Source: an uncultured bacterium
GTDB taxonomy: Bacteria; Planctomycetota; UBA8108; UBA1146
Assembly: GCA_913056395.1 (NCBI GenBank)
Contig: CAJXMG010000006.1
Coordinates: 34,408-98,407 of the forward strand
Direction: 5' to 3'
DNA: 64,000 bases
Shown here: one piece after another, positions 9,961-46,721 of the stretch
How the letters are laid out: every line of letters begins with the position of its first letter
Numbering within the stretch: the stretch's first letter is position 1
Notes under the pieces: generated by a model
Told to the model about the DNA's origin: nothing
The model's input: the letters and a program-made list of their open reading frames with translations, nothing else
Database searches by the model: none
Program-made: the position numbers and the translations under genes

Positions 9961-9977
9961 AGGCGCCCCCACACGAA

Positions 9978-13787: not shown

Positions 13788-13825
13788 GATTCTTTCCCTT
13801 CAAGGCTCTCAGATTACCTCAAAAT

Positions 13826-13854
13826 GGGCCTCAATGGCCCTCAATGGCCCACCC
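13826..13854 (+). promoter_or_regulatory. Tandem direct repeat (tcaatggccc x2 plus a partial copy) upstream of the phosphate porin and pst operon. Candidate PhoB-type box.
   Basis: gggccTCAATGGCCCTCAATGGCCCaccc lies about 150 bp upstream of the porin start. It has a 10-bp period like Pho boxes but does not match the E. coli consensus. Confidence 0.3.
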
Positions 13855-14005
13855 ACCCTCTTTGCAAAACCTTTACACAAAACTATTCGCAACCCTTATA
13901 TCGCTTACCTACCCTCCAAACCATCTTCGCAAACGTCAATTTATTAGACGCTTTTCGAAGACAGTTTTAAAGCAAACCACCAAATAGGGGGAAATCGACA
14001 TTCCG

Positions 14006-15202: not shown

Positions 15203-15288
15203 TTAAGATTGTTGTTTCTGGGAGGTTTCAGTTTGCAACTGCATCTAAATGTTGGCAGTTTGCCGAAAACCTAGAAAAGGGTTTACAA

Positions 15289-16251: not shown

Positions 16252-16258
16252 GGATCTG

Positions 16259-18929: not shown

Positions 18930-18998
18930 TCGGAACGATCAGTTTGAGTCCGAAACTTGAAACCGTGATGTCACTTCTCCTCATAATGGAGTCCGCGG

Positions 18999-19670
18999 AT
19001 GACCTTACACCTACAAAGAGACCTTGAAGCCGTCAAAAGCCAGTTGCTCGATATGGGCAGTCTGGTGGAAAAAGTCTCCAACCAGGCGATCACCGCACTT
19101 CAGGAGAGAGATACAGAACTTTCTGCCGGTGTCCATGAACTGGACCTCACCATTGATCAGCAGGAAGTGAAGATCGAAGAAGAGTGCCTGAAGATTCTCG
19201 CCCTGCACCAGCCCGTGGCCACGGATCTCCGTTTTGTGGTTTGTGTCATGAAGGTCAACAACGATCTCGAGCGAATGGGCGATCTCGCCATTAACATCGC
19301 CGAGAGAGCCAGTTACCTCTCCAGCCATGAACCCCTGGGGGTCCCCCTCGATTTCCATCGCATGGCAGAGCTGACCCGTGAAATGGTCAAGGAAAGCCTC
19401 AACGCACTTTTGAACCTGGATACGGATTTGGCTCGAAAAGTACTCGCAAAGGACGACGAGGTCGATGAGATCAATCGTCAGATGTTTGAGATCCTGGAAG
19501 AGATCATGCTGAAAGATCCGACGACGATCCGTCGTGCCATCCACCTGCTCTCTGCTTCAAGGCACCTGGAACGCATCGCCGACCTCGCCACCAACATCGC
19601 CGAGGATGTCGTCTTCCTGGTTGAGGGCGAAGTAATTCGCCATCTTCCTGAGGATTACAACCGGGCCTGA
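18999..19670 (+). CDS. phoU: Phosphate signalling complex protein PhoU.
   Basis: 223 aa with two PhoU repeats (DxxxD motifs, e.g. VNNDLERMGDLAINIAE and HLERIADLATNIAED). Immediately downstream of pstB. Confidence 0.85.
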   Translation: MTLHLQRDLEAVKSQLLDMGSLVEKVSNQAITALQERDTELSAGVHELDLTIDQQEVKIEEECLKILALHQPVATDLRFVVCVMKVNNDLERMGDLAINIAERASYLSSHEPLGVPLDFHRMAELTREMVKESLNALLNLDTDLARKVLAKDDEVDEINRQMFEILEEIMLKDPTTIRRAIHLLSASRHLERIADLATNIAEDVVFLVEGEVIRHLPEDYNRA

Positions 19671-30445: not shown

Positions 30446-33400
30446 ATGAAATATTACATACATTTTTTTGCAGCGTTCGTATTCATTTTTCAAACCAGCT
30501 CAACCCTTCTGGCGGAGAACCACAAGTGGTTGATCAATGAGATCTATTCGAATGCCGATGGAACCATCCAGTTTGTTGAACTGATCGATGACGGAGACGA
30601 TCAGGGTCACATTCTCTCAACAACCACATTGAGTACCTCCATCTCATCCTACAATTTCCCAAACAATCTGCCGACGAATATCAACACCCAAGGCAGAAGT
30701 GTTTTGATCGCTACTGCGGCGTTCGCAGCTCTCCCAGGCGCACCTGCACCCGATTACATCATTCCCGACAATTTCTTGCGGATTTTTGGATCTACATTGG
30801 TTTTCTCGGGATCTGGTGACGAGGTGACATACTCCACCCTGCCAACCGATGGCATCAACTCCATCAATCGCAATGGAGCCCAATCGACAAACAGTCCCAG
30901 AAATTTTTTCAACCAGACCGGCTCTATCACGCCTCCCACGAATGGTCCGGACTGCAATAACAATGGCGTCCCGGATGATTCTGATATCGCTTCCGGTGGG
31001 AGCACCGATTGCAATGGCGATGAAATCCCCGACGAATGTCAGTTGACCGACAATGACTGTGATCAAAACGGTCTCCTCGACGCATGCGAAGGAGACTCAG
31101 ACAATGACGGAGTCTTTGATCCTTGCGACGGTTGCCCGCTGGATCCCCTGGGAAGCGTCGACAGCGATGGAGACTTGATTTGTGATTATGCTGACATCTG
31201 CCCCCAGGGCGATGACCGCATAGACTCCGATGAGGACGGATTCCCTGACGCCTGTGACGTATGCCCTTTCGACCCCCACAATCTTGCCAACCAAAGCACT
31301 CCCTGCTGGGACGGAACTAATGACGAATGTTGGGGTGCTACCGTTGTCGGCCTTGGTCTGACTCCGGTAGACAATACTGCTTCGACCAGTAGTTTCACCG
31401 GAACCTACCCTGTTGACCCATTGATGTGTGCGCAATCCGGCCTCGATACCCTGCGCAATGATATTTGGTTCACCTACACCCCTCCCAGCCATGGCATCGC
31501 CATCTTCACCACTTGCAGTTTGACCACGTACGATACGGAAATGGTCCTCTACACTGGAGATTGCAACAACCTGACTCAGGTTGCCTGCAATGGAGATTCC
31601 GCTGCGAACTGCGATAACTTTACAGCCGAGATTCAATATCCGGTTTCAGGAATGACTCGTTATATGATTCGTCTCGGTGGTTGGAATGGTGAGCTCGGAA
31701 CCGGAAACCTGGAGGTCATCTTCACCAGCTCCAGTGGCGGCTGTGCTCTCACAGGAGACATCGATAATGACGGTGTTTGCGATCCAGATGACATCTGTAA
31801 TGGCTTCAGCGATGCGCTCGATGCTGATGGCGATGGAATCCCCGACGGCTGTGATGCCTGCCCGCTTGATTTCCAGAATGACATCGACGGAGACGGACTT
31901 TGCTCCGATCAGGACCCCTGTCCCATCGACCCCCTTAATGACGGTGACCAGGACGGACTTTGTGCCGATGAAGATCCCTGCCCGTCTTTCCCCTTGAATG
32001 ACGGCCCCGATTTCGACGCCGATGGCCTCTGTGATGAAGCAGACCCGGATGACGACAATGATGGTGTCAGTGACGCTGAGGATCTTGATCCCCTGAACCC
32101 TCTGAGCTGCAGGGATGCAGATCTCGATGGCTGCGATGACTGTGCCAACGGTACTGACGATCCGCTCAATGACGGTACAGACACCGATGCCGATGGGGTT
32201 TGTAATCTTCAGGACGATGATGATGACAATGACGGCATCGCTGACCTCAACGACAGCCATCCTCTGGATCCATTCCTTTGTGGAGATGTCGACATGGATG
32301 GTTGTGATGACTGCACTTCGGGTGTTTCAGATACAACCACCGACGGCACCGATACAGACGGAGACGGAATCTGTGACCTTGCTGATCCGGACCTCGATGG
32401 CGATGGAATTGAAAATACCTGTGATCTGGACCAGACTCCCGGTCAAGATTGTAACGGAGACCTGATCCTTGACGATTGCCAACTGGAGGCAAACGACTGT
32501 GACGGAAACCTGATTCCCGACGATTGCCAGACAGACACGGACGGTGATACCAATCCGGACACCTGTGATTTGGACGACGACGGTGACGGTGTTGAAGACA
32601 CTGCAGACTCTTTCCCGCTCGATCCGCTTCAATGCAGAGACGCGGATGGGGATGGTTGTGACGACTGCACCTCGGGAACCGACAACCCCGCCGCTGACGG
32701 GGCTGACAATGACGCCGATGGCCTCTGCGATCTTGGCGACTCAGACGACGACAATGACGGCGTTGAGGACACTGCTGACTCTGCCCCTCTGGACTCCAGT
32801 CTGTGCAGGGATGCAGACGCGGACGGGTGTGACGACTGCTCCTCCGGTTCAGACAACCCGGCAAATGACGGACTGGACACCGACGGAGATGGGACTTGCG
32901 ACCTCGGTGACGGTGACGACGACAACGATGGCATACCAGACAGTGAAGATATCGACAGCACGAATCCTTTCGTCTGCGGCGATTCGGACGCAGATGGTTG
33001 TGACGACTGCACCTCAGGAACCTTTAACCCTCAAACAGATGGATCGGATACCGACGGTGACGGAGTTTGTGACGCTGCAGACCCCGACCTGGATGGTGAC
33101 GGAATCCCCAATGAGTGTGACCTGGATCAGACGGGCGGAATCGACTGTAACGCAGATCTTCTCGACGACAGTTGCCAACTCGAGGGCAATGACTGCAACG
33201 GAGATGGTATTCCCGACGAGTGCACACTCGCTTCCGACGACTGTAACGGAGACCTGATTCTTGACAGCTGCCAGTTGGATACCGACTCTGACGGCACCAT
33301 CGACAGTTGTGATAACGATGACGACGGTGATGGCCTGGAAGATACTCTCGACAGCCATCCTCTCGATCCCTTCCAGTGTCAAGACTTAGACATGGATGGA

Positions 33401-34999
33401 TGCGACGATTGCAGCAGTGGATCCTTGAATGCGGCAGCGGACGGAGATGACTTCGACGGTGACGGTCTTTGTAATCTTGGAGATTCCGATGATGACAATG
33501 ACGGAGTTGAAGATCAGGCGGATCTTTCACCGCTGAACCCCTTCTCCTGTCGCGATACCGATGGAGATGGCTGTGACGACTGCTCTTCAGGATCGGACTC
33601 ACCCTCTGGTGATGGAGCCGACTTTGACGGTGACGGGCTCTGCGATAGCGGAGACTCTGACGATGACAATGATGGAGTATCCGATTCTCTGGACTCCTCT
33701 CCCTTCGATCCCTTCCTCTGCAGAGACACTGACGCCGATGGTTGTGACGACTGCACCAGTGGAACAGATAACCCCTCAGAAGATGGAACCGATTCGGATG
33801 GTGATGGTCTTTGCGATATCGGAGACAGTGATCTCGACGGAGATGGTATCGACAATGACTGCGATACAGATCTGACCGGTGGAGCTGATTGCCAGTCAGA
33901 CAACATTGACGACAACTGCCAGCTGCAGGCCAATGATTGCAACAGCGACGGCATTCCCGACGATTGTCAACTTGATACGGATCTTGACGGAACCATCGAT
34001 GATTGTGACCTTGACGACGACGGTGACGGAGTGAATGACAGCGAAGATTCATCCAGTCTCGACCCCTTCGCCTGCAGGGATGCAGATGCCGACGGATGCG
34101 ACGATTGCTCCAGCGGAACCGACAATCCTGCGAGTGACGGAGCGGATCTGGACGGTGACGGGCTCTGTGACCTGGGTGACCCGGATGACGACAATGACGG
34201 CGTCATCGATTCCGAAGACGAATTCCCCAATGACAACACCCTTTGCAGAGACGTGGATGCCGACGGTTGTGACGATTGCTCGAGTGGATTTGACAACCCC
34301 GCGAATGATGGACAAGACAGTGATGGTGACGGAAACTGTGACCTCAACGACGAAGACATCGACGGAGATGGCGTCTTGAATTCATGTGATCCAGATCACT
34401 CTGCCGGATCTGATTGTAACTCAAACGGAGTTCTCGATGTTTGTGACATCAACACCGGCACAAGTGATGATTGTGATCTTGACGGAGTTCCCGATTCCTG
34501 TCAGATCAGTTCATCCGCTTCTGCAGACTGCGACAACGATGGTCAACTCGACAGTTGTGAGATTCTCGATGGACTCGATAACGATTGCGACGGAGATGGA
34601 GTCCTCGACTCGTGCGCCCTTTCACAGGGAAGTCCCGATTGCGACCTCAATGGGATCCCCGATTCCTGTGACATCGCTAACGGAGCCCTCGACACCAACT
34701 CAAATCAGATACCGGATACTTGTGAAGGAACCTTCTTCATTCGCGGGGACTCCAACAGTGATGGCCAAGTAGACGTTACCGATGGCATCGTCATCATCTA
34801 CACTGTGTTTGGAATGATGGCACCGCCATGTGGAATGGCGATGGATGTGAATGCGGACAATCTGCTTAATCTTGCAGATCCGATGTTCCTCTTCCAGGCG
34901 ATCTTCAGTGGTGAAACGCAGATCTCTGCCCCATACCCGAACTGCGGGCCAGATCTGAATTCACTGTTGCCTTGCTCAGTGACGACCAACTGTCCCTGA
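30446..34999 (+). CDS. Giant (1517 aa) secreted protein: N-terminal lamin-tail domain (LTD), PPC-like beta-sandwich, about 20 thrombospondin-type-3 Ca-binding repeat units in a higher-order A-A-B pattern, and a C-terminal dockerin-like module.
   Basis: Signal peptide (FAAFVFIFQTSSTLLAEN). LTD signature WLINEIYSNADGTIQFVELID. Long DxDxDGxxDxxD repeat arrays. C-terminus FIRGDSNSDGQVDVTDGIVIIYTVF...NADNLLNLADPMFLFQAIFSGETQISAPYPNCGPD...NCP. Confidence 0.7.
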   Translation: MKYYIHFFAAFVFIFQTSSTLLAENHKWLINEIYSNADGTIQFVELIDDGDDQGHILSTTTLSTSISSYNFPNNLPTNINTQGRSVLIATAAFAALPGAPAPDYIIPDNFLRIFGSTLVFSGSGDEVTYSTLPTDGINSINRNGAQSTNSPRNFFNQTGSITPPTNGPDCNNNGVPDDSDIASGGSTDCNGDEIPDECQLTDNDCDQNGLLDACEGDSDNDGVFDPCDGCPLDPLGSVDSDGDLICDYADICPQGDDRIDSDEDGFPDACDVCPFDPHNLANQSTPCWDGTNDECWGATVVGLGLTPVDNTASTSSFTGTYPVDPLMCAQSGLDTLRNDIWFTYTPPSHGIAIFTTCSLTTYDTEMVLYTGDCNNLTQVACNGDSAANCDNFTAEIQYPVSGMTRYMIRLGGWNGELGTGNLEVIFTSSSGGCALTGDIDNDGVCDPDDICNGFSDALDADGDGIPDGCDACPLDFQNDIDGDGLCSDQDPCPIDPLNDGDQDGLCADEDPCPSFPLNDGPDFDADGLCDEADPDDDNDGVSDAEDLDPLNPLSCRDADLDGCDDCANGTDDPLNDGTDTDADGVCNLQDDDDDNDGIADLNDSHPLDPFLCGDVDMDGCDDCTSGVSDTTTDGTDTDGDGICDLADPDLDGDGIENTCDLDQTPGQDCNGDLILDDCQLEANDCDGNLIPDDCQTDTDGDTNPDTCDLDDDGDGVEDTADSFPLDPLQCRDADGDGCDDCTSGTDNPAADGADNDADGLCDLGDSDDDNDGVEDTADSAPLDSSLCRDADADGCDDCSSGSDNPANDGLDTDGDGTCDLGDGDDDNDGIPDSEDIDSTNPFVCGDSDADGCDDCTSGTFNPQTDGSDTDGDGVCDAADPDLDGDGIPNECDLDQTGGIDCNADLLDDSCQLEGNDCNGDGIPDECTLASDDCNGDLILDSCQLDTDSDGTIDSCDNDDDGDGLEDTLDSHPLDPFQCQDLDMDGCDDCSSGSLNAAADGDDFDGDGLCNLGDSDDDNDGVEDQADLSPLNPFSCRDTDGDGCDDCSSGSDSPSGDGADFDGDGLCDSGDSDDDNDGVSDSLDSSPFDPFLCRDTDADGCDDCTSGTDNPSEDGTDSDGDGLCDIGDSDLDGDGIDNDCDTDLTGGADCQSDNIDDNCQLQANDCNSDGIPDDCQLDTDLDGTIDDCDLDDDGDGVNDSEDSSSLDPFACRDADADGCDDCSSGTDNPASDGADLDGDGLCDLGDPDDDNDGVIDSEDEFPNDNTLCRDVDADGCDDCSSGFDNPANDGQDSDGDGNCDLNDEDIDGDGVLNSCDPDHSAGSDCNSNGVLDVCDINTGTSDDCDLDGVPDSCQISSSASADCDNDGQLDSCEILDGLDNDCDGDGVLDSCALSQGSPDCDLNGIPDSCDIANGALDTNSNQIPDTCEGTFFIRGDSNSDGQVDVTDGIVIIYTVFGMMAPPCGMAMDVNADNLLNLADPMFLFQAIFSGETQISAPYPNCGPDLNSLLPCSVTTNCP
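32078..34440. repeat. Intragenic tandem repeats of ~57-aa unit A and ~115-aa unit B (pattern A-B-A-A-B-A-A-B-A-B) encoding TSP3-like Ca-binding repeats. GAC/GAT-rich DNA.
   Basis: Units such as CRDADADGCDDCSSGTDNPA.DG.D.DGDGLCDLGDSDDDNDGV.D..D recur about 10 times with high DNA similarity. They spawn long antisense ORFs (e.g. 33024..34052, 32247..32864). Confidence 0.65.
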
Positions 35000-35097
35000 T
35001 TGAAGGGAGCAACTGGTCAAACGGGTTTCCGGTGCAATTAGGCATCGGGAACCCGTTTTTTGTACCCAATTCCAGAGAGGCTTCCATAAAACGAAAA

Positions 35098-35130
35098 ACG
35101 CCCGGTGTTTCCACCGGGCGTCCAAACATC
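35098..35130 (-). terminator. Rho-independent terminator downstream of tRNA-Pro (minus strand).
   Basis: Hairpin acgcccggtg-gaaa-caccgggcgt, followed on the minus strand by TTTTCGTTTT. Confidence 0.55.
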
Positions 35131-35133
35131 AAA

Positions 35134-35210
<77 letters not shown>

Positions 35211-36042
35211 AATGGTGGATTTTATCGTCTCTACCAAAGAGTGTGGGTGAAAATGCAGGATTAATCCCTGCATTCCCAATTGGGCTGCGAAATCCACAAT
35301 AGGATTCCGTCAGGAAACGTCCCACATGCTGCCTGACTCGAAGTTGTCAAACCCCAAGTCGATCCGACGGCGGGGTTCAGACGACCTCGACGGGTGCCAT
35401 TTCCCTCATCAGTTCTGCAGTCTCAACAAAGATGGTTTGGTTTTCCCTGTCCCGGAAGAGCCAGCCTTCAACACCATCCTCGCGCCAACTCTCAACCGGA
35501 ACGATTTCATGAACTCTGGCATATTGCAACAGTTGCTCTGACACGTTGATTCCCCCCAAACACTGGACGCAAGCTTGATGGAATCGCCCTCGAAAAAAGG
35601 GCTCCAGAGGCTTGCCATTCCGGTTCTACTCAAACGCACACGCCTTGCGGCACCACAACTTCGGTTTTGATATCCATCCCACCTAAGGCTCAGAAGTCAC
35701 CGTCTGACAACTGTCCCATGGATGAAGTGATCCCCCGACCACCTCTGGAATTCAAAAAGAAGTAGAGACACCCAACTATCTGGTCTTTGAACTTCGGATC
35801 CGTGCATTTCCCGAATCTTCTACACCCAGCCTGCAAACACATATCCTAAAAGGAACCGTGGAACTGCAGGCCTGAAGATTCCGTCCACTTCTTCATGTAG
35901 CGATCACGAAGGCAAGACCCGGCTTCTCTTCCACCGGAGATACTCCAATCTGTAGGCGGGGCTGTCAAGTACTGCTGAGAACTGCATTTCCGATCCCCAA
36001 TTCCGTGGTGCCCCAGCACCCCGGGGAGGATATCCTGTAGGC

Positions 36043-37170
36043 ATGAAAAGCCCTTTGCAGCCCTCTGGTCATCCGGGACCCAAATGTCCCCAACCTCAGC
36101 GAATTCACCCTCGCCTGCAGGCTGGGCGGAGGCGGATTCTTGGTTTTCTCCTTCTGCAAGGGGTTGCCGAAGGATTGCTGATCGCTGTGCCAATTCTCGC
36201 CCTGATCTCATTGGTGGCATTCCAGACCTCTCCCTTACAGTTTCCAGAGCCTATTTCGGGAGTCATCGCTGTCTCTCTCAGTGTTTTTCTGGGGATGGCT
36301 CAGCGCTGGTTTACGAGAGGTGGTCAATGGGCCCGGATCTGGGACCGTTGCCAGAGCAATGACAATCTGGTCGAAACCCTGTGTTTTCTCGGCCAACAAC
36401 CTCCTCTCGCTGACGACTGGCAAACCGCGCTCCTTGATCAGGCCGACTCTCTCGAGCCCCCCTCTTTGAAGGAACTTCGGCGGGTTCTGACCCCGGCCGG
36501 CATCTCCCCTTCCCGGGGGCCCGCCCTGACTGCTCTGATCCTGATCGTCTCCTGGTTCTTTTTTCTGACATCACAAGCCCCGGGCAGACTTCCTGTGGAG
36601 CCTGCAGAGATTCCCCTGGCGAGCAGTTCCGGCCAAACCGGGAAAACCAGCGATACTCCCGAGCAGGTTGGGGATGCTCCCACATCTGAAAATCCACCCA
36701 CGGAGCCACTGTCCAACCCCTCTCCCCTGAGTGATACGGACTCCACCACCGGCGAATCAGACTCCGGCAGTCCACTTGAGGCAGTTCCTTCCGATTCCCC
36801 GACAATCGCCATTCCTCTGGAAGCCGCCCTCTCGGAATTTGCCTCAGAGAATTCACTACCCGGCAATCCTTCCGAAGCCACCCTTCGAAATGATCTCGCG
36901 GCGTCGGGGGGAGAAGACGAGGGCTCGATTGAAAACACAGTTCCAGCACAAAGAAGCACGGCAAGTCTGGAATCACTGACTGTCAATTCCGGAACAGGTT
37001 CCGGAGTACAAGTCCCTGCTGAGGAGTCCGACTCCCGTGAAGCAACCCTCGAAATTCCGACGGCAGAGCCCCGTACAGGGCCTGCGAACCTGCCTCCCCA
37101 TTGGCAGAAGCTGGTCGATCGGTACATGGAACTCCGTGATCGCACCCCCTCCGGTGCTGGAAGGCGATGA
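36043..37170 (+). CDS. Hypothetical membrane protein: N-terminal transmembrane segments plus an acidic Pro/Ser/Thr/Glu-rich low-complexity C-terminal half. First gene of the MoxR operon.
   Basis: 375-aa ORF with hydrophobic helices (LLIAVPILALISLVAF, ALILIVSWFFFLTS). Its stop overlaps the moxR start (ATGAGATGA). The low-complexity tail reduces confidence. Confidence 0.4.
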   Translation: MKSPLQPSGHPGPKCPQPQRIHPRLQAGRRRILGFLLLQGVAEGLLIAVPILALISLVAFQTSPLQFPEPISGVIAVSLSVFLGMAQRWFTRGGQWARIWDRCQSNDNLVETLCFLGQQPPLADDWQTALLDQADSLEPPSLKELRRVLTPAGISPSRGPALTALILIVSWFFFLTSQAPGRLPVEPAEIPLASSSGQTGKTSDTPEQVGDAPTSENPPTEPLSNPSPLSDTDSTTGESDSGSPLEAVPSDSPTIAIPLEAALSEFASENSLPGNPSEATLRNDLAASGGEDEGSIENTVPAQRSTASLESLTVNSGTGSGVQVPAEESDSREATLEIPTAEPRTGPANLPPHWQKLVDRYMELRDRTPSGAGRR

Positions 37171-37171
37171 G

Positions 37172-38146
37172 ATGAGCGTGGAAGCGGAGATCGATACTTT
37201 TCGGCAGTGGGATGAAAAACTGCAAATTGCCATCCGTGAACAGATCCTTGGACAGGATGCCGCCATCGAGGCAAGCCTCTGCACTCTTCTCGCAGGCGGA
37301 CACCTCCTTCTCGTCGGCGTTCCCGGTACGGGAAAAACCCGACTGGCAGAATGTCTTTCACAGGGATTGGGATTGCCGAAGGGGCGCATCCAGTTCACTC
37401 CGGATCTCCTTCCTGCAGATATTCTGGGAGCAGAGACGCTGATCAGTGGTCCCCAGGGAGATCGGGTCGAGTTCCGCAAAGGTCCGATTTTTCATCCGCT
37501 GATCGTTGCCGACGAAATCAACCGGGGAACACCTCGAACACAGTCCGCACTGCTCGAAGCAATGCAGGAAGGTCAAGTCACCCTTGCCGGGGAGAGATAT
37601 CCGCTCGATCCAAACTTCAGTGTGATCGCCACCCGAAACCCGATCGAAATGGAGGGAACCTATCCCCTCCCGGAAGCGCAAAGAGATCGATTCATGATGG
37701 AAGTCCTGCTGCCTCCTCCGGAAGCAAGTGTTCTGGGCAAAATCGCCAGATTGACCACCGGTTCCTCTGACACGGAAATCCTGAGTGGCTTCGAGTCGAA
37801 TACCTTCGAGGAATTGCGGGCTACTGTACGCAAAGTCATCGCTGCAGATGCCATCGTCGATCGAGCGGCACGCTGGGTTGCTGCCAGCCGCCCGGAAGAC
37901 CCAACAGCACCCCCATCGATTCGTGAGTGCCTGCGACTCGGTGGTGGAGCGAGGGCTTTGCAGGCCCTGATTCTGTGTGGAAAAGTTGAAGCCTTGCGAT
38001 CGGGTCGCAGTCATCTGGCTGACAGCGATTGGCAGAAATGGCGAGAGCCGATTTTGCGCCACCGACTCGTCTACAGCCTGGAGGGTGAACTCAGAGGCTG
38101 GAACAGCACCGATGTCGTCGCCGCCCTGGATGAAGCGGTGAGCTGA
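37172..38146 (+). CDS. MoxR-family AAA+ ATPase.
   Basis: Walker A GVPGTGKT, ADEINR and RNPIEMEGTYPLPEAQRDRF match the MoxR signature. The start was moved to ATG 37172; the ORF-track start 37037 is embedded in the upstream gene. Confidence 0.85.
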   Translation: MSVEAEIDTFRQWDEKLQIAIREQILGQDAAIEASLCTLLAGGHLLLVGVPGTGKTRLAECLSQGLGLPKGRIQFTPDLLPADILGAETLISGPQGDRVEFRKGPIFHPLIVADEINRGTPRTQSALLEAMQEGQVTLAGERYPLDPNFSVIATRNPIEMEGTYPLPEAQRDRFMMEVLLPPPEASVLGKIARLTTGSSDTEILSGFESNTFEELRATVRKVIAADAIVDRAARWVAASRPEDPTAPPSIRECLRLGGGARALQALILCGKVEALRSGRSHLADSDWQKWREPILRHRLVYSLEGELRGWNSTDVVAALDEAVS

Positions 38147-38149
38147 AAG

Positions 38150-41002
38150 ATGGGCCTTGCTGTTGTTTCTCGCCTGCAGAGATGGAGCCTGCTGCTGGGA
38201 ATCGTACTGATCCCCCTGCTCTCTTTTCCTGCGTGGAGTCAATCTCCTGCAGGAGGGCAAACAGACACTCTCGATCCCGCACTCCGAAGCATTGTTCGAC
38301 TGATTCTTGAAAAGCCCGATGATGAGAAAGTGGTCATCAGTGCTGGCCAATGGTCCCGGTCAAAGAATCGATCCCGCGAACTTTTCGAAGCCGTTCTTTG
38401 GCAAGCTCGTCAGCAACAAAGCGATGCGCTGTATCACTTCTGTGCCCGATTCCTGTTACAGGAGGGGGACCCTCTCAGGGCCATTTCCGTTCTGGAAGAG
38501 GGTTGCGACATTCCTGAGTCGAGTCGCTGCCCCCATGCTCTCGGTCGAATCTTGCTTCAGGGTGGCTGGGTTGAGGCAGTCCAATCGATCCGCAGCACCC
38601 ACGGTGTCGACGCCTGGACCGGGATACTCCTTCAATTGTTTTCCGGTATCGAAATCAGCAACGATACAGTTCCGGAAGTCACTGCCAGTGATCGGGATTA
38701 CCTGATCCGGACCTTCCCCAGACTGAACCTCTGCCGTGAAGGTGCGCGACTCCTCGAATTACAGGAAGATCCTCAGGCCGCACTTTCGATCCTGATTCGG
38801 GGAGGTGATCTTCCCGGCATTGAAAAATTGCTCTCACGGGAACCCGGCCTTCTTCAAGAAATCTCACCAGAGGAAATCCTGCCCATCGCCCGACTTCGGG
38901 GTCAATTGCCCAACGATCTGTTCATACCAAGATCCGTGGCGACGAAATGGAAATCATCCATGGGTTTCGAAGAAGCCCGGTCCGGCTCCATCATGCAAAA
39001 CGCTCCGGAGTCCCGGCTGTTTCAATCCCTGAATGTTGCTTGCCAGAATGGGGACGCCACTCTGGCACGCAAGATCTGGATCAGTCTCGAACTGCTGCTC
39101 CCACCGTTACAAGCCTATCCGGCTCTCAATCCACGCTGGGAAGAGATGCTCGGCCCGACTCTGGCACCGTGGACCAATCCAGTGGCGATTGCTGTAACAA
39201 TGGGAGACGTGAGCGATCCAATCGCTGCAACTCTCTGTAGACGAGCAATGCTTTACTCCGAGCCTGGCAGTGAGACGGAAGCTCGCCTGTGGTTTCATGC
39301 CGGGCGATTGTCCTCCATAGTTTCGGAAGTTGAGCGAGCACGGAGGATCCTCCCGACCGGACGCTTTCGCAGGCCGACCTCCTTCAGCGGAATCAGTCTC
39401 ACTGCTCCTCTTGGAGCAACAGAGCTTCCCCTCTCCTGGCCACCGCCGATCGCCCTTCGTCCTTCGACCGATTCGGTAGTGGGTGAACTCGATGGCGCAC
39501 CTCTTCGTGCCCCTGAATTGGATTTCTCAACTGAACAGTGGGTTCTCTCAGACTGGCAGATGACACCCGCCTCATCCCTGCACCCCCCGAGACAAACCGG
39601 GAAGGGTGAAATGGAACTGGGTTTGACAGACAGCAGTGGACGCCCGGTCATCATTCGTGGTGATAAAAACCACTGGTCCATACTGATGGACGGAGTTGAA
39701 ACACAACGTCTTCAAGCTTCAGATGATCACTCCCTCTTTGATCAGAACGGAATACCTCGCATCGAGTTGTTGCAACGGATCATCAATCCGTGCCCCCCTC
39801 AGCTGAGCACCGATATCAATTGGGAAAAATGGCCGACTTCCTTGCGCCAATTTGTCCACGCATGTGGAAAATACCTGCGTAACGGTGAGTGGGTCCGCCA
39901 TGTAAAACTGCAAAAAACGGCCACTGAACTTATCGTCCAGGTGGGACCGATAATCGGGACCTTCGTCTCCCCCTCTTCTGCCCCACTCGCAAGCAACAGG
40001 AACTCGATTCAGCACTCTCAACCCCTGCTGCTGCCAGTTTCGAAGGCGACACCTGATTCCCCCATTGGAATCGCTCCACTCGGCCCCAGTGCCACTCTGA
40101 TTGAGCAGATTCACCGAAGTTCAGGTGTCACTTCCACCGCTCTCACTCAACCCTGCCTGATCCCACCCGGTGAAGAGCTGCTATCCGTAACGGGGACTGA
40201 TGACCAGCTGGCGATCACTCGCTCCGGCAAGATAGCCTGGATCTCCGACCGATCCGTACTGCCCTCGGTCTGGTGGCCTTTGCTCAATACCCCTTTACCG
40301 GGAAACGTCGGTCTTCCTCCTCTTCCCAGGGACGTACATCCTCCGATTTATCCGTGGGCGGATGCGGTGACTCCCCGGGTCAGGGAAACCCGTTGCGCGG
40401 ACGGCAGTGTTTTTCTGGTGATCGCCCAGCCTCTTCTTCGAGTTGACCGCCAAGGGCCCCAACTGCTGACATGGCCGTCCTCTCTCGATGAAAAATGCAC
40501 CAGTGCCCAATTGCTCGACAACGAGGGCAAGGTTCCGGCTTCCGCCTCCGAGCCACTCGCCCCATGGTTCATCGATTCAGAAAGCCGATTTCTTTATGGC
40601 CCTTCTTTTCAACAGGCCCTGCCCGCCGAGGGGGCCTATTCCCTTCACGGTCACCCGCAGGGCCCCCTCGTCCTCGGTCAGCACCGGGGTGAAACCTGGC
40701 TCGCCCTGTGGAAAGAGGGTGATTGGATTTTCCTCGACCTGCCACCCCTGCCCGGCGAAAGGGATCGTCCCTTCCTGCGAGCAGCCGCCATCGAGGTGAT
40801 CGGTGATCAGATTCTGTTGGTTGCGGATCGGCTCTGGCGATTAACTCCTCAACAGTCTCCCGAACCTCTGATTCCCTCCCCCGATCCCGGAGCCTATCGG
40901 GCGGTCCACTGGGTCCAGCCTTCACCTCAGGTCAGTGGTGATCGGGTCCTCATCCAGCGCCCCTGGGGAGTGGAGCAGGTTTGGAGTTTCAGCGATGAAT
41001 AG
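38150..41002 (+). CDS. Large (950 aa) secreted hypothetical protein within the MoxR-DUF58-VWA operon.
   Basis: Signal peptide (LLLGIVLIPLLSFPAWSQSP). No motif I can assign. Tightly packed between moxR (4-nt gap) and the DUF58 gene (overlap ATGAATAG). Confidence 0.5.
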   Translation: MGLAVVSRLQRWSLLLGIVLIPLLSFPAWSQSPAGGQTDTLDPALRSIVRLILEKPDDEKVVISAGQWSRSKNRSRELFEAVLWQARQQQSDALYHFCARFLLQEGDPLRAISVLEEGCDIPESSRCPHALGRILLQGGWVEAVQSIRSTHGVDAWTGILLQLFSGIEISNDTVPEVTASDRDYLIRTFPRLNLCREGARLLELQEDPQAALSILIRGGDLPGIEKLLSREPGLLQEISPEEILPIARLRGQLPNDLFIPRSVATKWKSSMGFEEARSGSIMQNAPESRLFQSLNVACQNGDATLARKIWISLELLLPPLQAYPALNPRWEEMLGPTLAPWTNPVAIAVTMGDVSDPIAATLCRRAMLYSEPGSETEARLWFHAGRLSSIVSEVERARRILPTGRFRRPTSFSGISLTAPLGATELPLSWPPPIALRPSTDSVVGELDGAPLRAPELDFSTEQWVLSDWQMTPASSLHPPRQTGKGEMELGLTDSSGRPVIIRGDKNHWSILMDGVETQRLQASDDHSLFDQNGIPRIELLQRIINPCPPQLSTDINWEKWPTSLRQFVHACGKYLRNGEWVRHVKLQKTATELIVQVGPIIGTFVSPSSAPLASNRNSIQHSQPLLLPVSKATPDSPIGIAPLGPSATLIEQIHRSSGVTSTALTQPCLIPPGEELLSVTGTDDQLAITRSGKIAWISDRSVLPSVWWPLLNTPLPGNVGLPPLPRDVHPPIYPWADAVTPRVRETRCADGSVFLVIAQPLLRVDRQGPQLLTWPSSLDEKCTSAQLLDNEGKVPASASEPLAPWFIDSESRFLYGPSFQQALPAEGAYSLHGHPQGPLVLGQHRGETWLALWKEGDWIFLDLPPLPGERDRPFLRAAAIEVIGDQILLVADRLWRLTPQQSPEPLIPSPDPGAYRAVHWVQPSPQVSGDRVLIQRPWGVEQVWSFSDE

Positions 41003-41822
41003 TCGGCAGCAAGACTTTCCCGAATCACTTCTCTCCAGACTTCGCTGGCGTCAACGCTGGGGAAACCAGGTGCCCGGTGACCACCCTTCACTCCGAACTG
41101 GAGAAGGGGGCGACTTTGCCGGGCATCGCCGTTGGCAAAGTGGTGAAGATCTTCAGCATTTGGATCTTCATGTTTGGCAAAGACTTCGCCAAAGATGGAT
41201 TCGGGAATACCGGCAGGAAGCGGATGAACCCCTGCATGTCATCCTCGATTCCGCACCTTCTCTTGTCTTCGGCGAACGGGCCACAGCCTTGCAAATCTTG
41301 AGAACTCTCTTGAAAGGTGTTGCCAAAAAATCCCGGGTTCCCCACAGGGAATGGATCATCCGCGGAAAGAGTCTCGAGACGCTCAATCCATCAACCCTGC
41401 AAGACCCACCGGAAAGGGTTTCACTGAGTGAGATTTTGCCCTATTTCCCCCGGAGTCTGTCTCAGGGGCGAGTGATCATCATCAGTGATCGTTTGACCTT
41501 CGACGAGTTGTCCGACTGGTCCGGCTCAATACCCATCCGTTACCTGCAGTGGTGGTCCCTGTTACTCGAGGAGGAATCAAACCCGGAATGGACCGGTGAT
41601 CTCCAGTTGACCGAACCGGGAGGGAAGTTCTGGAAAAGTTATTTTAATCCGTCACTCCTCCAGCAATATCAACAACTCTATCGATACCAGTTTCGGATAC
41701 TGCAGGATTGGCTCCAATCGAGGGGTGGTTTTCATCTGAAAGTTACCGCTGTCTCATCTGCAGCCCATATTCTAGGTGAACTGACCGGATCCCGCGGCCC
41801 CATGGAGGTGGTCTCCGGATGA
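40995..41822 (+). CDS. DUF58-family protein (MoxR partner).
   Basis: Matches the DUF58 motif G.G.DF...R.Y..GDD.R.IDW: here GEGGDFAGHRRWQSGEDLQHLDLHVWQRL. Start at ATG 40995 overlaps the upstream stop. Confidence 0.7.
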   Translation: MNSRQQDFPESLLSRLRWRQRWGNQVPGDHPSLRTGEGGDFAGHRRWQSGEDLQHLDLHVWQRLRQRWIREYRQEADEPLHVILDSAPSLVFGERATALQILRTLLKGVAKKSRVPHREWIIRGKSLETLNPSTLQDPPERVSLSEILPYFPRSLSQGRVIIISDRLTFDELSDWSGSIPIRYLQWWSLLLEEESNPEWTGDLQLTEPGGKFWKSYFNPSLLQQYQQLYRYQFRILQDWLQSRGGFHLKVTAVSSAAHILGELTGSRGPMEVVSG

Positions 41823-44791
41823 CCATCGAATGGGTAACCCCCTCCTGGATCTGGGCCTTGATTCCATTGCTCTCCATCGGGTGGTGGTTTCTCCGTCGTG
41901 GAGAAGGTTCCTCCTCAATCAGAAACGTTGCCTCTCTCCAACTCTGGGACCGTCTCAAGGTGGTCGCCCCGCCGAACAATCACTGGTTCACTCTTCTCCC
42001 AGTGTTACTCCTCGGCCTCTTGGCAGGTGGCCCACGACTGTTGGAATCTTCAAATCAAATTGAGGTCGGGTGGACCCGATCCCTGACCGGGGACATCCGT
42101 CTCGATATACACAGCAGTGATGATCTTGAAGAAATTCAGCTGCAATCCCCAAACAACCCGCCAGTCTCTTTGGCATTTGAGAGCACTCTGGGCAGAACAT
42201 CGATTTGGCTCCCTGAAACTCCTTCTGATAGCACCCTCAGGATTCGCAGTAGCAACGGTGAACGCACCATCCCTCTTCCAGCCATGCCCCAGAAGACTCG
42301 CGTTTCCTATCAGGGTGATTCCCCTGCCATGATCTCACTGCTGAGCGCCCTCGAGATGGAGGGTTGGATCGAAAGGGTGCAGGTCGATGATCCCAAGGCG
42401 GCCAGCGTCATCATCGGCCCATACCCTGTAGAGGTCAGTGACTCTTCCAATCTTCCCCACATTGCATTTAGTGAAGAGGGGCAAGAGATTTTTCTCCCCC
42501 TGATCGCTCCCCCCCTCCCTGGAGAGACTCTCTTTGAAGGGATCGATCCGGGTTCATGGACGGTGACCACAGCTTTCGTGGTACCTGAAGGCAGGCCTCT
42601 TCTCAAAACTGCCACGGGTCTTCCGCTGATCAGCCGTACCGCCCGTGGATTTGCATGGGGATTTCATCCGGGCTCGGGAGATCTGGCTGATCGATCCGAT
42701 TGGCCCATCCTGATGATCAGGATGCTGATCGAGTTATCGAACTCGGAGGTTACAGCGGTTTCCAACCCCCAATGGGGATTCCTGCACTTCACCCTGACCG
42801 GAACCGTTTTGCTCACCCTGATTCTCTGGGCCCTGAATGGAATCTCTCTGTGGCCATTCATATTGTTGATTGCCTGCTCCATTCTCATCGGCAACCGAAC
42901 GACTGACGTGGCCTGGTCCGATCTTTCAAAGCGGTCCACTCAACAAACAGACTCCGGTTCCTTTCCCCTGGGAACCCGAATTGTTTTTCAGGAATTAGAC
43001 CCCATCCCCCATCCCAAATGGTTGCACTCCCTTGCACAAAAAGGCCTCGGCTGGACTGTCGAGAGATCGAATCCCACTCCTCGCCAACCGTGGTCGCTTA
43101 CTAATAGCATTACCCCCCCTGGAACGCCGATCACTGTTTATGGAGATATTCCTGAGGGCGAGTGGAAACTGACTTCCCCTTCAGGGGTAGAGGAATCTCT
43201 GGAGTGGCCTGTACAAAAAAGTGAACCGGGACTCTGGAGTGTGGTCGGTCCTGATGGGAGTCAGGACTCGTTTCTCATCCTCAACCCCATACCAGTCACA
43301 TTGGCCCTCTCAGAATACTCCTCAATGGAGTCACTTTTTCAGGATCCCCGTTTCAAGACTACGTTTCTGAAATCCGGTGAATCCCTTCCTGATCCCGGTG
43401 CGGGCAGAGTTCTTGCATGGCATGGTCAGGCTCTGCCAGAAACGATTTTGGCAGAGCTTCCGTCATGGATCGAATCTGGCGGAGTTCTGTTGGCAGCCGC
43501 GGGCGATCATGATTGCGACGACAAGAGAACCCTTGAGGTTCTCGAAGAGATTCTCTCAGCTCCTCTGCCCCCCATGGAGGAGCAGGAACTGGACATGGGT
43601 GTCATACTCCTCGACCTTTCCGGAAGTCTCATCGGTAAATCGGCAACGACTCTTCTGGAGTCGACTGTCGCCATTCTTGACACTTCCCATACCGGATTGC
43701 GTTGGGGTGTCGCTGGATTCCGAACCGACGTGGAATGGCTTCTGGAACCGGGAACCCCGGTCGATTCAGGGACCGCCGGATTGCTGGAGGGGGAAATTCG
43801 TTCCGGCGGAGGAACTCGCCTGGGTCATGCACTCCAACAGATCACCCCAGAATTGAAACAGCATGATGGTTCGAAGCGCCTGCTCGTGTTGACGGACGGA
43901 CGCACTGTTCCAGCAAACTGGTCAGAGATCGGAAAAGCACTGTCTAAAGCGGGGATTCAACTGGAGATTCTTCTGATCGGTGAATCTGTCGACCGCAACG
44001 CCGCCGAGGAATTGATCCGCACTTCCGGAGGCTCTCTGGAATGGGCTGCGACAACCACGGAGGCTTTGGAAAAAATTTCAGCATGGATCCCCGAAGATCT
44101 TCCCGGTTGGAAGAAAACAGCCCCTCCCCTGATTCAGAATGAAGCCTCTCCATTGGTCAGTGGATTGTCAGCCCCCCTGTCACTCCCCAGGCAAATCCTT
44201 GACCCCGGTGAATTGGACTCCCATCTACATACCTCGACTGAGGTCTGGACAGATCGTGAAGACAACAGGATTCTTTCCAGTCGCTCCACGGGGCTGGGAC
44301 AGGCCCTATTGTGGTGGTCCAGTTTCGAAGCTTCCAGATTGGGAGAATCGGCGTCTCCTCTCATCCAGGGACTTCGGGATGTACTGGCCACCGCTGCGGG
44401 CAGAAAAGCCCAGCGAGAGATTGCCAGTGGTCTCGTTCAAAACCCGGATGGAATGACAACTCTGGTTCTCAAACGGGAATTTGGGGAAGGCGCCATTTTG
44501 GATCCCGTGAGTATCTCCAGTACAAACTTGTCCGCTGCAAGACTGGCACTGGTCGCCGATCCGGGTATGAGTTACTTCAACACGGAATCCTTTGTCGACC
44601 GAAAGGCCGCCCATTGGACTTCAGGATCTCTCAGTGGAATTGCCACAGGGTTGAAATGGCGGCAGACCGAGAGCAACCCCTGGCTGGGGATCTCAGCTGA
44701 GTGCAAGCCCAGCCCCGGAGGCCAACCCTGGCCCCCCTTGCTCATTGCCGCCGCACTGGCATGGATCAGCAGCCGAGGCCGTCAGCGGTAG
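41819..44791 (+). CDS. BatA-like N-terminal transmembrane domain plus von Willebrand factor A (VWA) domain protein, 990 aa.
   Basis: N-terminus WIWALIPLLSIGWWFLRRG...HWFTLLPVLLLGLLAG resembles aerotolerance-regulator BatA_N. VWA-like region DLSGSLIGKS...LLVLTDGRTV...GIQLEILLIGESVD. Additional TM helices mid-protein and at the C-terminus. Confidence 0.7.
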   Translation: MTIEWVTPSWIWALIPLLSIGWWFLRRGEGSSSIRNVASLQLWDRLKVVAPPNNHWFTLLPVLLLGLLAGGPRLLESSNQIEVGWTRSLTGDIRLDIHSSDDLEEIQLQSPNNPPVSLAFESTLGRTSIWLPETPSDSTLRIRSSNGERTIPLPAMPQKTRVSYQGDSPAMISLLSALEMEGWIERVQVDDPKAASVIIGPYPVEVSDSSNLPHIAFSEEGQEIFLPLIAPPLPGETLFEGIDPGSWTVTTAFVVPEGRPLLKTATGLPLISRTARGFAWGFHPGSGDLADRSDWPILMIRMLIELSNSEVTAVSNPQWGFLHFTLTGTVLLTLILWALNGISLWPFILLIACSILIGNRTTDVAWSDLSKRSTQQTDSGSFPLGTRIVFQELDPIPHPKWLHSLAQKGLGWTVERSNPTPRQPWSLTNSITPPGTPITVYGDIPEGEWKLTSPSGVEESLEWPVQKSEPGLWSVVGPDGSQDSFLILNPIPVTLALSEYSSMESLFQDPRFKTTFLKSGESLPDPGAGRVLAWHGQALPETILAELPSWIESGGVLLAAAGDHDCDDKRTLEVLEEILSAPLPPMEEQELDMGVILLDLSGSLIGKSATTLLESTVAILDTSHTGLRWGVAGFRTDVEWLLEPGTPVDSGTAGLLEGEIRSGGGTRLGHALQQITPELKQHDGSKRLLVLTDGRTVPANWSEIGKALSKAGIQLEILLIGESVDRNAAEELIRTSGGSLEWAATTTEALEKISAWIPEDLPGWKKTAPPLIQNEASPLVSGLSAPLSLPRQILDPGELDSHLHTSTEVWTDREDNRILSSRSTGLGQALLWWSSFEASRLGESASPLIQGLRDVLATAAGRKAQREIASGLVQNPDGMTTLVLKREFGEGAILDPVSISSTNLSAARLALVADPGMSYFNTESFVDRKAAHWTSGSLSGIATGLKWRQTESNPWLGISAECKPSPGGQPWPPLLIAAALAWISSRGRQR

Positions 44792-46721
44792 GATCTGGAC
44801 CCGGGGTACCCACCGGCGGTGGGATGACCACGGTCCCCTCAAACAGGTACTGCAGGAGAAACACGGCGTCGGAGATGTCCAGAGCGCCATCATCATTGGC
44901 GTCACCGGAATCAGGGCAGACCAGAGAAGTCACCGACCCAAAGAGGAACTCGAGCATCATGATGGGATCCGAGATGTCGGTGGTTCCATCGCCATTCGGA
45001 TCTCCGCGCAGGAAATCGTTATTGGAGGTCGGCGGTGGCAAAGTGGCACCGCCTTCATTCCCCGGACTTCCCAAATCACCTGATCCAAACGCTTGTTGAG
45101 ATGCACTCCAGGAGGAAGCGGCACCGGGCGCCGTCGTCAATAGATCCGACAACTCGCACGACTGTCCTGCAGCGTAAGGGAAAGTTCCCGAAGTGTAATT
45201 CACACGGGTATGTTCCAACCCCTGATCATCCAGGAGTACCACTTCATCGACACTGTTGGCCAGAATGAAGGAACTGTAGATATAGTCCGCATTCACCCCG
45301 CCATTGACAGTCACGTCACCGGATCGGGCAAAAACCAGAAAACCCAGTGGCGGAATAACCAAACCTCCGGGCGCAGAGATCAGATGAAAATCGGTGTCGT
45401 CATCTCTCAGGGTCCAGCCATTGAGGTCAACAGCGTCCGCTCCCCTGTTGAAGATTTCGAGCCACTCCCCTGTGGAATCACCCACAGCCTGCGGATTGGC
45501 CATCACTTCTGATATCACCAGATTTACATCCCCCGGATTGGGTGGATTGCCCCCGCAAGCAGTCCCGGTGATGGCCGTTCCTGAAGCAGAAGCACTGGCA
45601 GAACTTTGATTTCCTGAGAGGTCGGTCGCTGTCACCTGGTAATGATAGGCCACGCCACCTGTCACAGTGGTATCGGAGAAGGCACTGAGAGAGGTACTTC
45701 CAACAGCACTAAAGGGACCTGCAGCAGAAGTCGAACGAAAGACGGTGTAACTTGCCAGATCTGCTTCAGTATTGTCGGCCCAATCGAGAATCAACTCACA
45801 GGTAGCGGCTGTGACCAGAGGCGTCGCCGGAGCCGCTGGAGGAGTGGTGTCAGTGGTAGGACAAGTCCAAATTTGACACACAAATTCGGGGTGATCGATA
45901 AAAGGATTTCGATTCCCCTGGTAGTCAAAGATCACATCGTTGCGATTTTGCTCAGCCACACTGACAGGATCTTCCAAATGCCACTCCAAAAGCACTGAAA
46001 GGAGCCCCATATAAGCTACAGACTGATTTTGATTCGTATTGGAAACGATCAGGCTGCGGTTATCCGTGATTCGCAAGTCTGGCTCGCTGCAACCGGTGAT
46101 CGAGTGATTACCACCTTCATAGCGCATGTCCATGTAGAAGATGTTGCGGGCAACATCCCCGCGTCTGTCTTCCCATGTCTCCCATGATCCTGTGCTGCCG
46201 AATCCACTGGAGAAGTTGGAAAAAGCGGTTCCCTCAGCAACAAAGGATTCACAGTTGGCGGAAGTGCACCAATCGTAGGGTCTGTTGCCTCTGGCAGAAT
46301 TGTAACTTGGACTGGCAGCCCTTAACTGGTGCAAATCGGTGTAGGGGTAATTACAACCGTTGTCATTGGTGTAGCCGAAGGAAGAAGGCCAGGTGTGCTC
46401 CCGATTCCAACCGATACTGGTGTTTTGTTCTGTCCGTAAAACAGAAGTGTTTCGGTAGATAGTGATCAGTCTGGAAGGATCGTTCGGGTCCTGCTCACTG
46501 ATCCCCAAAACATCCCAGGTATCGGTAGCGGAGCTGGTGTAAGGCAGTCGCTGATGGTCATCCACGATCTCGTGAAGAGCGAGCCTGAGAGACTCTCCGG
46601 TCAATCCGGTGGCGGACGAGTAATACCCGGGAGGAGGATCCGCAAAGGCGACATTCCACCCCAGAAGCCCGATGATTCCCACCATTAACGAGAGTCTGCA
46701 TGTCTTGAAAATAAAGCGCAT
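44766..46721 (-). CDS. Secreted endonuclease I family DNase fused to a fibronectin-III-like domain, a lamin-tail domain (LTD) and a C-terminal dockerin-like module.
   Basis: Signal peptide. Endonuclease_1-like WNREHTWPSSFGY...DLHQLRAASPSYNSARGNRPYDW. FN3-like segment. LTD NLVISEVMANPQAVGDSTGEWLEIFNRGADAVDLNGWTLRDDD. C-terminus FLRGDPNGDGTTDISDPIMMLEFLF...NDDGALDISDAVFLLQYLFEG...PGPDP...GC. Confidence 0.75.
   Translation of the reverse strand: MRFIFKTCRLSLMVGIIGLLGWNVAFADPPPGYYSSATGLTGESLRLALHEIVDDHQRLPYTSSATDTWDVLGISEQDPNDPSRLITIYRNTSVLRTEQNTSIGWNREHTWPSSFGYTNDNGCNYPYTDLHQLRAASPSYNSARGNRPYDWCTSANCESFVAEGTAFSNFSSGFGSTGSWETWEDRRGDVARNIFYMDMRYEGGNHSITGCSEPDLRITDNRSLIVSNTNQNQSVAYMGLLSVLLEWHLEDPVSVAEQNRNDVIFDYQGNRNPFIDHPEFVCQIWTCPTTDTTPPAAPATPLVTAATCELILDWADNTEADLASYTVFRSTSAAGPFSAVGSTSLSAFSDTTVTGGVAYHYQVTATDLSGNQSSASASASGTAITGTACGGNPPNPGDVNLVISEVMANPQAVGDSTGEWLEIFNRGADAVDLNGWTLRDDDTDFHLISAPGGLVIPPLGFLVFARSGDVTVNGGVNADYIYSSFILANSVDEVVLLDDQGLEHTRVNYTSGTFPYAAGQSCELSDLLTTAPGAASSWSASQQAFGSGDLGSPGNEGGATLPPPTSNNDFLRGDPNGDGTTDISDPIMMLEFLFGSVTSLVCPDSGDANDDGALDISDAVFLLQYLFEGTVVIPPPVGTPGPDPTADGLGC

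Follow-up and report, generated by a model that had tools for sequence, protein, structure and literature searches.

The stretch of Planctomycetota DNA analysed here (the window; 64,000 nucleotides (nt), positions 34,408-98,407 of the forward strand of contig CAJXMG010000006.1, with all coordinates below given as window positions) carries an operon of the MoxR-DUF58-VWA type in which the gene for an exported protein of 950 amino acids (aa), here called p950, lies between the genes for the ATPase MoxR and for the DUF58-like protein. Five consecutive plus-strand open reading frames (ORFs), coding for a membrane protein (g1), MoxR, p950, the DUF58-like protein and a protein with a BatA_N-type anchor and a VWA domain, fill positions 36043-44791 (Table 1). 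At every junction neighbouring genes are linked by a stop/start overlap or stand 1-3 nt apart, which supports the statement of the preliminary description of this region that all five genes belong to a single, tightly coupled unit. Its account of the individual junctions stands in part. The sequence ATGAGATGA is indeed present at the g1/MoxR junction, but the two genes abut there without overlapping, the stop codon of g1 (TGA, 37168-70) being separated by 1 nt from the start codon of MoxR (ATG, 37172). The gap between MoxR and p950 is 3 nt (TGA AAG ATG) and not 4 nt. The overlaps at the p950/DUF58 junction (8 nt, ATGAATAG) and at the DUF58/VWA junction (4 nt, ATGA) are as described.

The operon is bounded on both sides. 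Upstream lies a tRNA-Pro gene (TGG) on the minus strand (35134-35210), followed on that strand by a strong 12-base-pair GC-rich hairpin and a T-run (35096-35210, minus strand), the sole convincing intrinsic terminator in a scan of 10 kilobases (kb). At the 3′ end, a convergent minus-strand gene for a protein with Endonuclease_1 and Lamin-tail (LTD) domains runs into the VWA gene and overlaps the end of the operon by 26 nt. Terminator-like sites within the operon did not exceed the expectation from shuffled sequences (15 versus 10.9 +/- 3.6). According to the ORF list, the intergenic region preceding g1 has no ORF of at least 200 aa, only short ones on the minus strand; neither an Rfam family nor a sigma-70-like consensus was found in it, and it is presumed to act as the operon promoter region. 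The Rfam scan, run at gathering thresholds, returned two tRNAs and nothing else.

Table 1. Features of the five-gene operon and of the region preceding it (window positions).
Feature	Position	Strand	Basis
Upstream intergenic, presumed operon promoter region	35211..36042	+	between tRNA-Pro (- strand) and g1
g1, 375-aa membrane protein with three transmembrane segments	36043..37170	+	hydropathy; alignment with the first gene of six related operons
MoxR AAA+ ATPase, 324 aa, AAA_3 (MRP) type, Walker A GVPGTGKT	37172..38146	+	AAA_3 8e-53
p950, exported TPR-beta-propeller protein, 950 aa	38150..41002	+	homologues; structure model; synteny
p950 residues 1-30, signal peptide or N-terminal anchor	38150..38239	+	hydropathy; model helix 3-24
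p950 residues 43-400, all-alpha TPR-like solenoid	38276..39349	+	models, Foldseek, family profile
p950 residues 405-947, beta-rich domain with propeller similarity	39362..40990	+	DSSP, Foldseek
DUF58-like protein, 275 aa	40995..41822	+	ATG 40995; weak PF01882; homology to L013 protein
BatA_N/VWA multi-pass membrane protein, 990 aa	41819..44791	+	hydropathy; PF07584 in relatives; L013 homology
VWA domain (residues about 595-760) of the 990-aa protein, complete MIDAS	43601..44098	+	VWA_2 3.5e-5; profile A4

The p950 protein has no match in Pfam, NCBIfam or PADLOC, and it had previously been described as a protein with no assignable domain. That view has to be revised, since a family profile, a structure model and Foldseek searches all bear on its fold and together point to a tetratricopeptide repeat (TPR) solenoid followed by a beta-propeller. 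The N-terminus, with arginines at positions 8 and 11, a hydrophobic stretch at 12-25 and the motif AWS followed by Q, reads as a signal peptide or anchor, and the bulk of the protein should be periplasmic; a hydrophobic N-terminus is also present in all distant homologues listed. An AlphaFold model built with eight close homologues was confident for residues 40-400 only and left residues 400-800 unmodelled. With this model Foldseek saw TPR/PPR solenoids only, among them the TPR regions of OGT, APC/C and MalT, and LbcA (7rqf). It was superseded by a model built with 17 diverse sequences (mean predicted local distance difference test score (pLDDT) of 82, predicted template modelling score (pTM) of 0.61), which comprises a helix at 3-24, a solenoid at 43-400 and a beta-rich part at 405-950; a helical insert (538-584) and a disordered loop (610-647) lie within the latter. 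In both models the solenoid has pLDDT values of 80-94. Consistent with a TPR assignment, the 17-member family profile matched consensus TPR proteins at 5e-13 when compared with PDB sequences, and TPR_19 or TPR_2 was found in 4 of the 17 family members. The most conserved motif of the family, PGSxxEARLWFHAGRL (373-387), lies at the end of the solenoid.

The beta-rich domain consists of about 36 strands according to DSSP. BamB (7e-5), WD40 propellers and virginiamycin B lyase were the top Foldseek matches of the C-terminal half (E-values of 7e-5 to 1e-3, probability 1.0), and these matches hold at the level of the fold only (target TM-score of 0.26-0.48, 8-15% identity). No WD40 or PQQ Pfam match was obtained for p950 or 16 of its homologues. 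The motifs conserved in this domain are PLPG (715-718), ERDRP (870-874) and RPWG..E.W (937-945). Invariant residues of the whole protein are mostly G, P, W and L, with a few charged ones (E116, E377, D872, R873 and Q923), and no catalytic motif is recognisable among them. Taken together, p950 is most probably a TPR solenoid fused to a beta-propeller-like domain, the propeller being assigned by a fold-level match. Decomposition of p950 into known proteins of the Bat operon under sensitive homology search had been named as an observation that would speak against the preliminary description. The N-terminal half agrees with this in part, being a TPR as in BatC/BatE, whereas the propeller half, the fusion, the size and the position of the gene lie outside the Bat repertoire.

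A word-indexed search retrieved seven clusters of full-length p950 homologues with 46-94% identity, and 21 members were found when 1.84 billion representative proteins were searched exhaustively with a profile. Only the latter search found the distant members, which include proteins of 1000-1150 aa that are about 20-30% identical to p950. The existence of the full-length homologues and of these more distant ones indicates that p950 is a real gene. Word-indexed searches with profiles A2 and A4 yielded close relatives only, the sole addition being the comparator P0045. All family members with a named source come from Planctomycetota, and they are annotated as "hypothetical protein" or "tetratricopeptide repeat protein".

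To examine gene order, we drew p950 loci from gene-call tables, a genome scan and a metagenome scan; the tblastn survey comprised 27 fetched loci, 25 with a p950 homologue and two canonical comparators. The loss of synteny in relatives had been set beforehand as an observation that would speak against a role of p950 in this system. No such loss was seen. In every p950 locus with enough flanking sequence, MoxR lies directly upstream of the p950 gene and DUF58 followed by VWA directly downstream, all on the same strand, and upstream of MoxR g1 was likewise detected or called in each case where sequence is available. The order g1-MoxR-p950-DUF58-VWA is thus kept across about a dozen lineages, down to about 30% p950 identity, and the related operons again have start/stop codons that overlap or closely abut. 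In the deepest comparison, p950, DUF58, VWA and g1 fall in parallel to about 28-35% identity, while MoxR retains 51-53%; such parallel divergence of the four proteins is as expected of co-evolving partners. The five-gene core is also intact in loci L013, L015 and L016, whose downstream neighbours differ. Adjacency of moxR and the DUF58 gene is otherwise taken as the general rule in this family, and the comparator L017, reached through a weak VWA match, shows the canonical order MoxR-DUF58-VWA with nothing in between. A large exported protein between MoxR and DUF58 is therefore a departure from canonical adjacency, as had been stated for this region.

The remaining four proteins could be characterised to different extents. 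The leading protein, g1, has hydrophobic segments at about 33-58, 67-85 and 160-180, and no Pfam or NCBIfam matches. Alignment with the first genes of six related operons revealed a conserved loop motif, WPxxWDR, with W96, W100 and D101 invariant, and a conserved RWxxxIxRY-like motif at the C-terminus with Y361 invariant. The latter looked DUF4175-like; Pfam gave no such match and the claim is not made. The tail is long, of low complexity and rich in Pro, Ser, Thr and acidic residues. Judging from its sequence, g1 is probably oriented N-in/C-out, which would place the WPxxWDR loop in the cytoplasm and the disordered tail outside.

MoxR scores 178 bits against AAA_3 (PF07726) and only 22 bits against bpMoxR (PF20030), below the cut-off of 27; the corresponding values of its relatives are 172-188 and 31-42 bits. 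Its closest solved structure is 2r44 (3e-51), and the Walker A motif is identical in 8 of the 8 operons checked. Although its ORF begins with a GTG at 37037, the ATG given in Table 1 was taken as the start since all homologues are about 324 aa long. In locus L001, MoxR was called as two overlapping ORFs (183 + 149 aa, 9022-9997), and in L010 the VWA gene was called as 145 + 861 aa (11674-14668). These split calls may reflect frameshifts, assembly errors or, in L010, a real division between the BatA_N anchor and the body of the protein.

The match of the DUF58-like protein to PF01882 (5.6e-4, 19.6 bits) is below the Pfam cut-off of 23.4. The protein is 27% identical (E-value of 2e-10) to the same-position protein of L013, and the proteins at this position in L012, L013, L015 and L016 have unmarked precomputed matches to PF01882 (E-value of at most 1e-5). 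The DUF58 assignment is thus confirmed through homologues that match the family outright. Neither MoxR nor the DUF58-like protein has a hydrophobic segment by hydropathy, and both are predicted to be cytoplasmic.

For the 990-aa protein, hydropathy indicates a BatA_N-like double transmembrane (TM) segment (about 5-25 and 56-75) that is followed by a TM hairpin (320-360) and by one more TM segment at the C-terminus (about 965-985). BatA_N (PF07584) was found in three of the seven members of this family, the protein of the window itself not being matched, and VWA families were detected in five of the seven. Compared with the VWA protein of L013, it has 31% identity (E-value of 1e-38). The VWA_2 match of the window protein (24.8 bits) falls below the cut-off of 27. 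However, the seven-member family profile A4 matches 8s05, the collagen VI VWA, NorD, BatB 3ibs and 4jdu, and the metal ion-dependent adhesion site (MIDAS) residues D599-x-S601-x-S603, T666 and D693 are invariant in the A4 alignment; the matches to BatB and NorD structures and the invariant MIDAS confirm the VWA domain. No family match was obtained for residues 760-960. The TM count, the charge distribution and the analogy with BB0173 suggest an N-out/C-in protein with five TMs, which would place residues 76-319 and 361-960, and with them the VWA domain, in the periplasm. This predicted topology agrees with the double-TM anchor described for BatA_N in TIGR02226. BB0173 is a BatA-type protein whose VWA domain was experimentally shown to face the periplasm (PMC5700661).

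With classical Bat-like clusters, such as the Bat operon of Bacteroides, bat of Leptospira/Borrelia and RL3499-RL3502 of Rhizobium, the operon shares an AAA_3 MoxR, DUF58, a protein that combines a BatA_N double-TM anchor with a MIDAS VWA domain of probably periplasmic orientation, and the presence of TPR-containing and exported accessory proteins. Unlike in these clusters, a gene for a 950-aa protein (2.85 kb) parts MoxR from DUF58, both in the window and in every related locus; a single 990-aa VWA protein takes the place of BatA and BatB; the TPR of p950 is fused to a beta-propeller; and the operon is led by a 3-TM protein with a disordered tail. In size, p950 is about three times BatC or BatE. 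Pfam scans listed no match to BatD (PF13584) or SH3 for p950 or its homologues. In Rhizobium, mutation of a MoxR-DUF58-BatA-type operon reportedly led to envelope defects, as described by Vanderlinde and co-workers (Vanderlinde et al.) in 2011. Bat clusters regularly include TPR proteins (BatC/BatE) and the exported BatD, and their products are thought to form one membrane-associated complex affecting the envelope or stress tolerance (PMC3557215, PMC5700661).

Considering these similarities and differences, we lean towards the view that the region represents a Planctomycetota-specific five-gene variant of the MoxR-DUF58-BatA/VWA envelope module, with p950 as a periplasmic scaffold or partner of the complex; a role of p950 as a structural partner is favoured, and that of a client is less likely. 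The starting points of this view are gene order, coupling, domain content and conservation of the five genes; to these it would add a topology, physical interactions, a direction of action and a process served. The envelope part of the system would be composed of g1, the 5-TM 990-aa protein and p950, and the cytoplasmic part of a MoxR hexamer and the soluble DUF58 protein. TPRs and propellers are both protein-binding platforms, and p950 could be a stoichiometric scaffold or adaptor in the periplasm which uses its TPR and propeller surfaces to dock on the VWA/MIDAS domain of the 990-aa protein, on the tail of g1, or on both. On the other side of the membrane, MoxR-DUF58 might contact the short conserved loops that g1 and the BatA_N hairpin would expose to the cytoplasm, and these loops would relay ATP-driven remodelling by MoxR-DUF58 across the membrane. 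In such a system p950 would fill the role that the small BatC/BatE TPR proteins and exported BatD have in Bat clusters (PMC3557215), and the process served may be envelope assembly or integrity.

Several points weigh against the view of p950 as a scaffold. Its contacts with partner proteins are proposed from the parts list, gene order and conservation. The topologies were assigned by hand from hydropathy and the positive-inside rule rather than with a dedicated predictor, and the signal peptide of p950 could be an uncleaved anchor. All carriers of p950 found in this analysis come from metagenomes or metagenome-assembled genomes. In addition, the flanking genes are partly conserved (the Endonuclease_1/LTD gene downstream in most loci and FG-GAP/ASPIC-type genes upstream in several), which implies that part of the synteny signal reflects common descent within one lineage rather than independent retention. 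Finally, the client of the founding MoxR system, MxaF, is itself a periplasmic beta-propeller protein, which keeps a client role of p950 alive as an alternative.

According to this alternative, which we regard as rather unlikely, the MoxR-DUF58-VWA proteins mature the propeller of p950, e.g. by metal insertion, as they do in the mxa cluster. There, the MxaR, -S, -A, -C, -K and -L proteins are all required for Ca2+ loading of MxaF, a periplasmic propeller with pyrroloquinoline quinone (PQQ) (PMC12276312). The mxa cluster is a true precedent for a periplasmic propeller client encoded in cis: in both cases a MoxR, DUF58-type and VWA set is encoded in cis with a periplasmic beta-propeller protein, the one on which the set acts in the mxaRSACKL case (PMC12276312), and the VWA domain of the 990-aa protein has retained an intact metal-binding MIDAS. 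However, the mxa propeller is a PQQ/Ca2+ enzyme encoded upstream and not between MoxR and DUF58, whereas p950 has a TPR domain and lacks a PQQ signature. Neither PQQ nor any other enzyme family was detected in p950 or 16 of its homologues, no methanol dehydrogenase appeared in the top 50 structural matches, and D872 is the sole invariant acidic residue of the propeller half, leaving no evident metal site. The stop/start overlaps of p950 with its flanking genes are also better suited to stoichiometric subunits than to a client. It would be still harder to regard p950 as a functionally unrelated passenger that happens to sit between MoxR and DUF58, and we give this hardly any credence. The absence of a Pfam or NCBIfam link between p950 and MoxR systems and the confinement of the family to one phylum would fit a passenger, but its position is kept in every locus with flanks to about 30% identity, relatives retain start/stop codons that overlap or abut, and p950 diverges at rates that match those of the neighbouring genes.

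Another known arrangement brings together the same kinds of domains. Beta-propeller MoxR-vWA ternary systems, described by Kaur, Burroughs, Iyer and Aravind (2020) in planctomycetes among others, are proposed to be anti-invader conflict systems that work near the membrane (PMC7159879). They use a bpMoxR-type ATPase, often with a GXXXTAKS P-loop, and their third component has a variable N-terminus, a membrane-spanning segment, TPR and a beta-propeller (PMC7159879). Compared by description only, p950 with its TM/signal segment, TPR and propeller resembles this third component, and its operon shows weak matches to bpMoxR. That the operon is such a system, with p950 as its third component, nevertheless seems very improbable, because the characteristics of the ternary-system MoxR were not found in MoxR of the operon, which belongs to AAA_3 (172-188 bits across the operons versus 22-42 bits on bpMoxR) and has a canonical P-loop, GVPGTGKT in 8/8 operons rather than GXXXTAKS. 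The canonical MoxR of L017 shows the same cross-match to bpMoxR. Furthermore, the presence of a DUF58 gene and of a BatA_N anchor links the operon with the envelope module of the classical type. Instead of a variable N-terminal globular domain, p950 has an N-terminal half that is well conserved and among its best-modelled parts. Comparison of the p950 profile with that of the VWA protein by hhalign was not significant (probability of 0.7%), which speaks against homotypic propellers. Inheritance looks vertical, within a conserved chromosomal neighbourhood, and nothing in the locus suggests mobility or defence. A reading of the locus as a defence system was rejected also on PADLOC results, which consisted of P-loop cross-matches on MoxR only.

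Returning to p950 as a structural partner, its two halves recall periplasmic scaffolds of envelope assembly. BamD and LbcA are TPR lipoproteins of envelope assembly machines. For the C-terminal half of p950, the best structural matches are to chains of BamB, and LbcA (7rqf) is among the TPR matches of the protein; unlike in BamB and LbcA, no lipobox is present in p950 and no link to BamA in the locus. One could go further and imagine a so far undescribed trans-envelope machine specific to Planctomycetota, with a cytoplasmic MoxR-DUF58 motor, two membrane adaptors, a periplasmic head in which the MIDAS VWA domain is paired with the p950 propeller in an integrin-like manner, and a TPR arm recruiting envelope or outer-membrane substrates, so that p950 would amount to a fused BamB/BamD-like assembly factor serving the unusual envelope of planctomycetes. 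We consider this extended scheme speculative and improbable.

The surroundings of the operon are rich in exported proteins. Directly upstream, with tRNA-Pro in between, is a 1517-aa ORF without a Pfam match (30446-34999, plus strand), whose counterpart in L001 has the same location and a length of 1504 aa. A gene with FG-GAP (integrin-alpha-like) repeats precedes the operon by a few kb in the window (28351-30114, plus strand) and likewise in L001 (110-1625), L010 (3399-5120), L013 (1-399) and L014 (498-5160). In distant relatives it carries UnbV_ASPIC as well, and the window protein matches FG-GAP_3 only. Recurrence of this gene may mean that it is functionally linked to the VWA system, or just that the chromosomal backbone is conserved. 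The product of the convergent Endonuclease_1/LTD gene (44766-46721, minus strand) is predicted to be secreted and has a dockerin-like C-terminus; an Endonuclease_1/LTD gene is likewise found at this position in L001-L004, L010 and L014. In high-GC distant relatives the VWA gene is followed by a Transglut_core2 gene (L013, 15529-16224; L015, 11021-11725). This layout recalls the MoxR-DUF58-transglutaminase cluster of bifidobacteria, the PFNA cluster (PMC8430577). Other predicted secreted proteins include a di-haem cytochrome c peroxidase that carries a dockerin domain (26526-28094, minus strand) and a 1484-aa subtilase with PKD domains (49309-53763, minus strand). Farther upstream, positions 14093-19670 (plus strand) hold a complete high-affinity phosphate uptake locus composed of a phosphate-selective porin O/P, a PstS-like binding protein, two permeases, an ABC ATPase and PhoU. 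A second MoxR operon suspected at 15289-18929 turned out to be the Pst phosphate transporter.

The classical MoxR-DUF58-VWA module is already known, and on present evidence the operon does not amount to a new principle. What has not been described previously is a TPR-beta-propeller fusion fixed between MoxR and DUF58, together with a dedicated 3-TM leader protein. The rare p950 family, for which neither Pfam nor NCBIfam has a model, could be given a name and a model of its own for the annotation of Planctomycetota genomes. Although MoxR-DUF58-VWA modules rank with the most widespread AAA+ systems of bacteria, their targets are known in a few cases only. Fixed throughout a whole lineage between the ATPase and the DUF58 partner, p950 is a defined candidate for a partner or client of such a module, and the operon offers a concrete case for how a cytoplasmic ATPase may influence periplasmic VWA domains.

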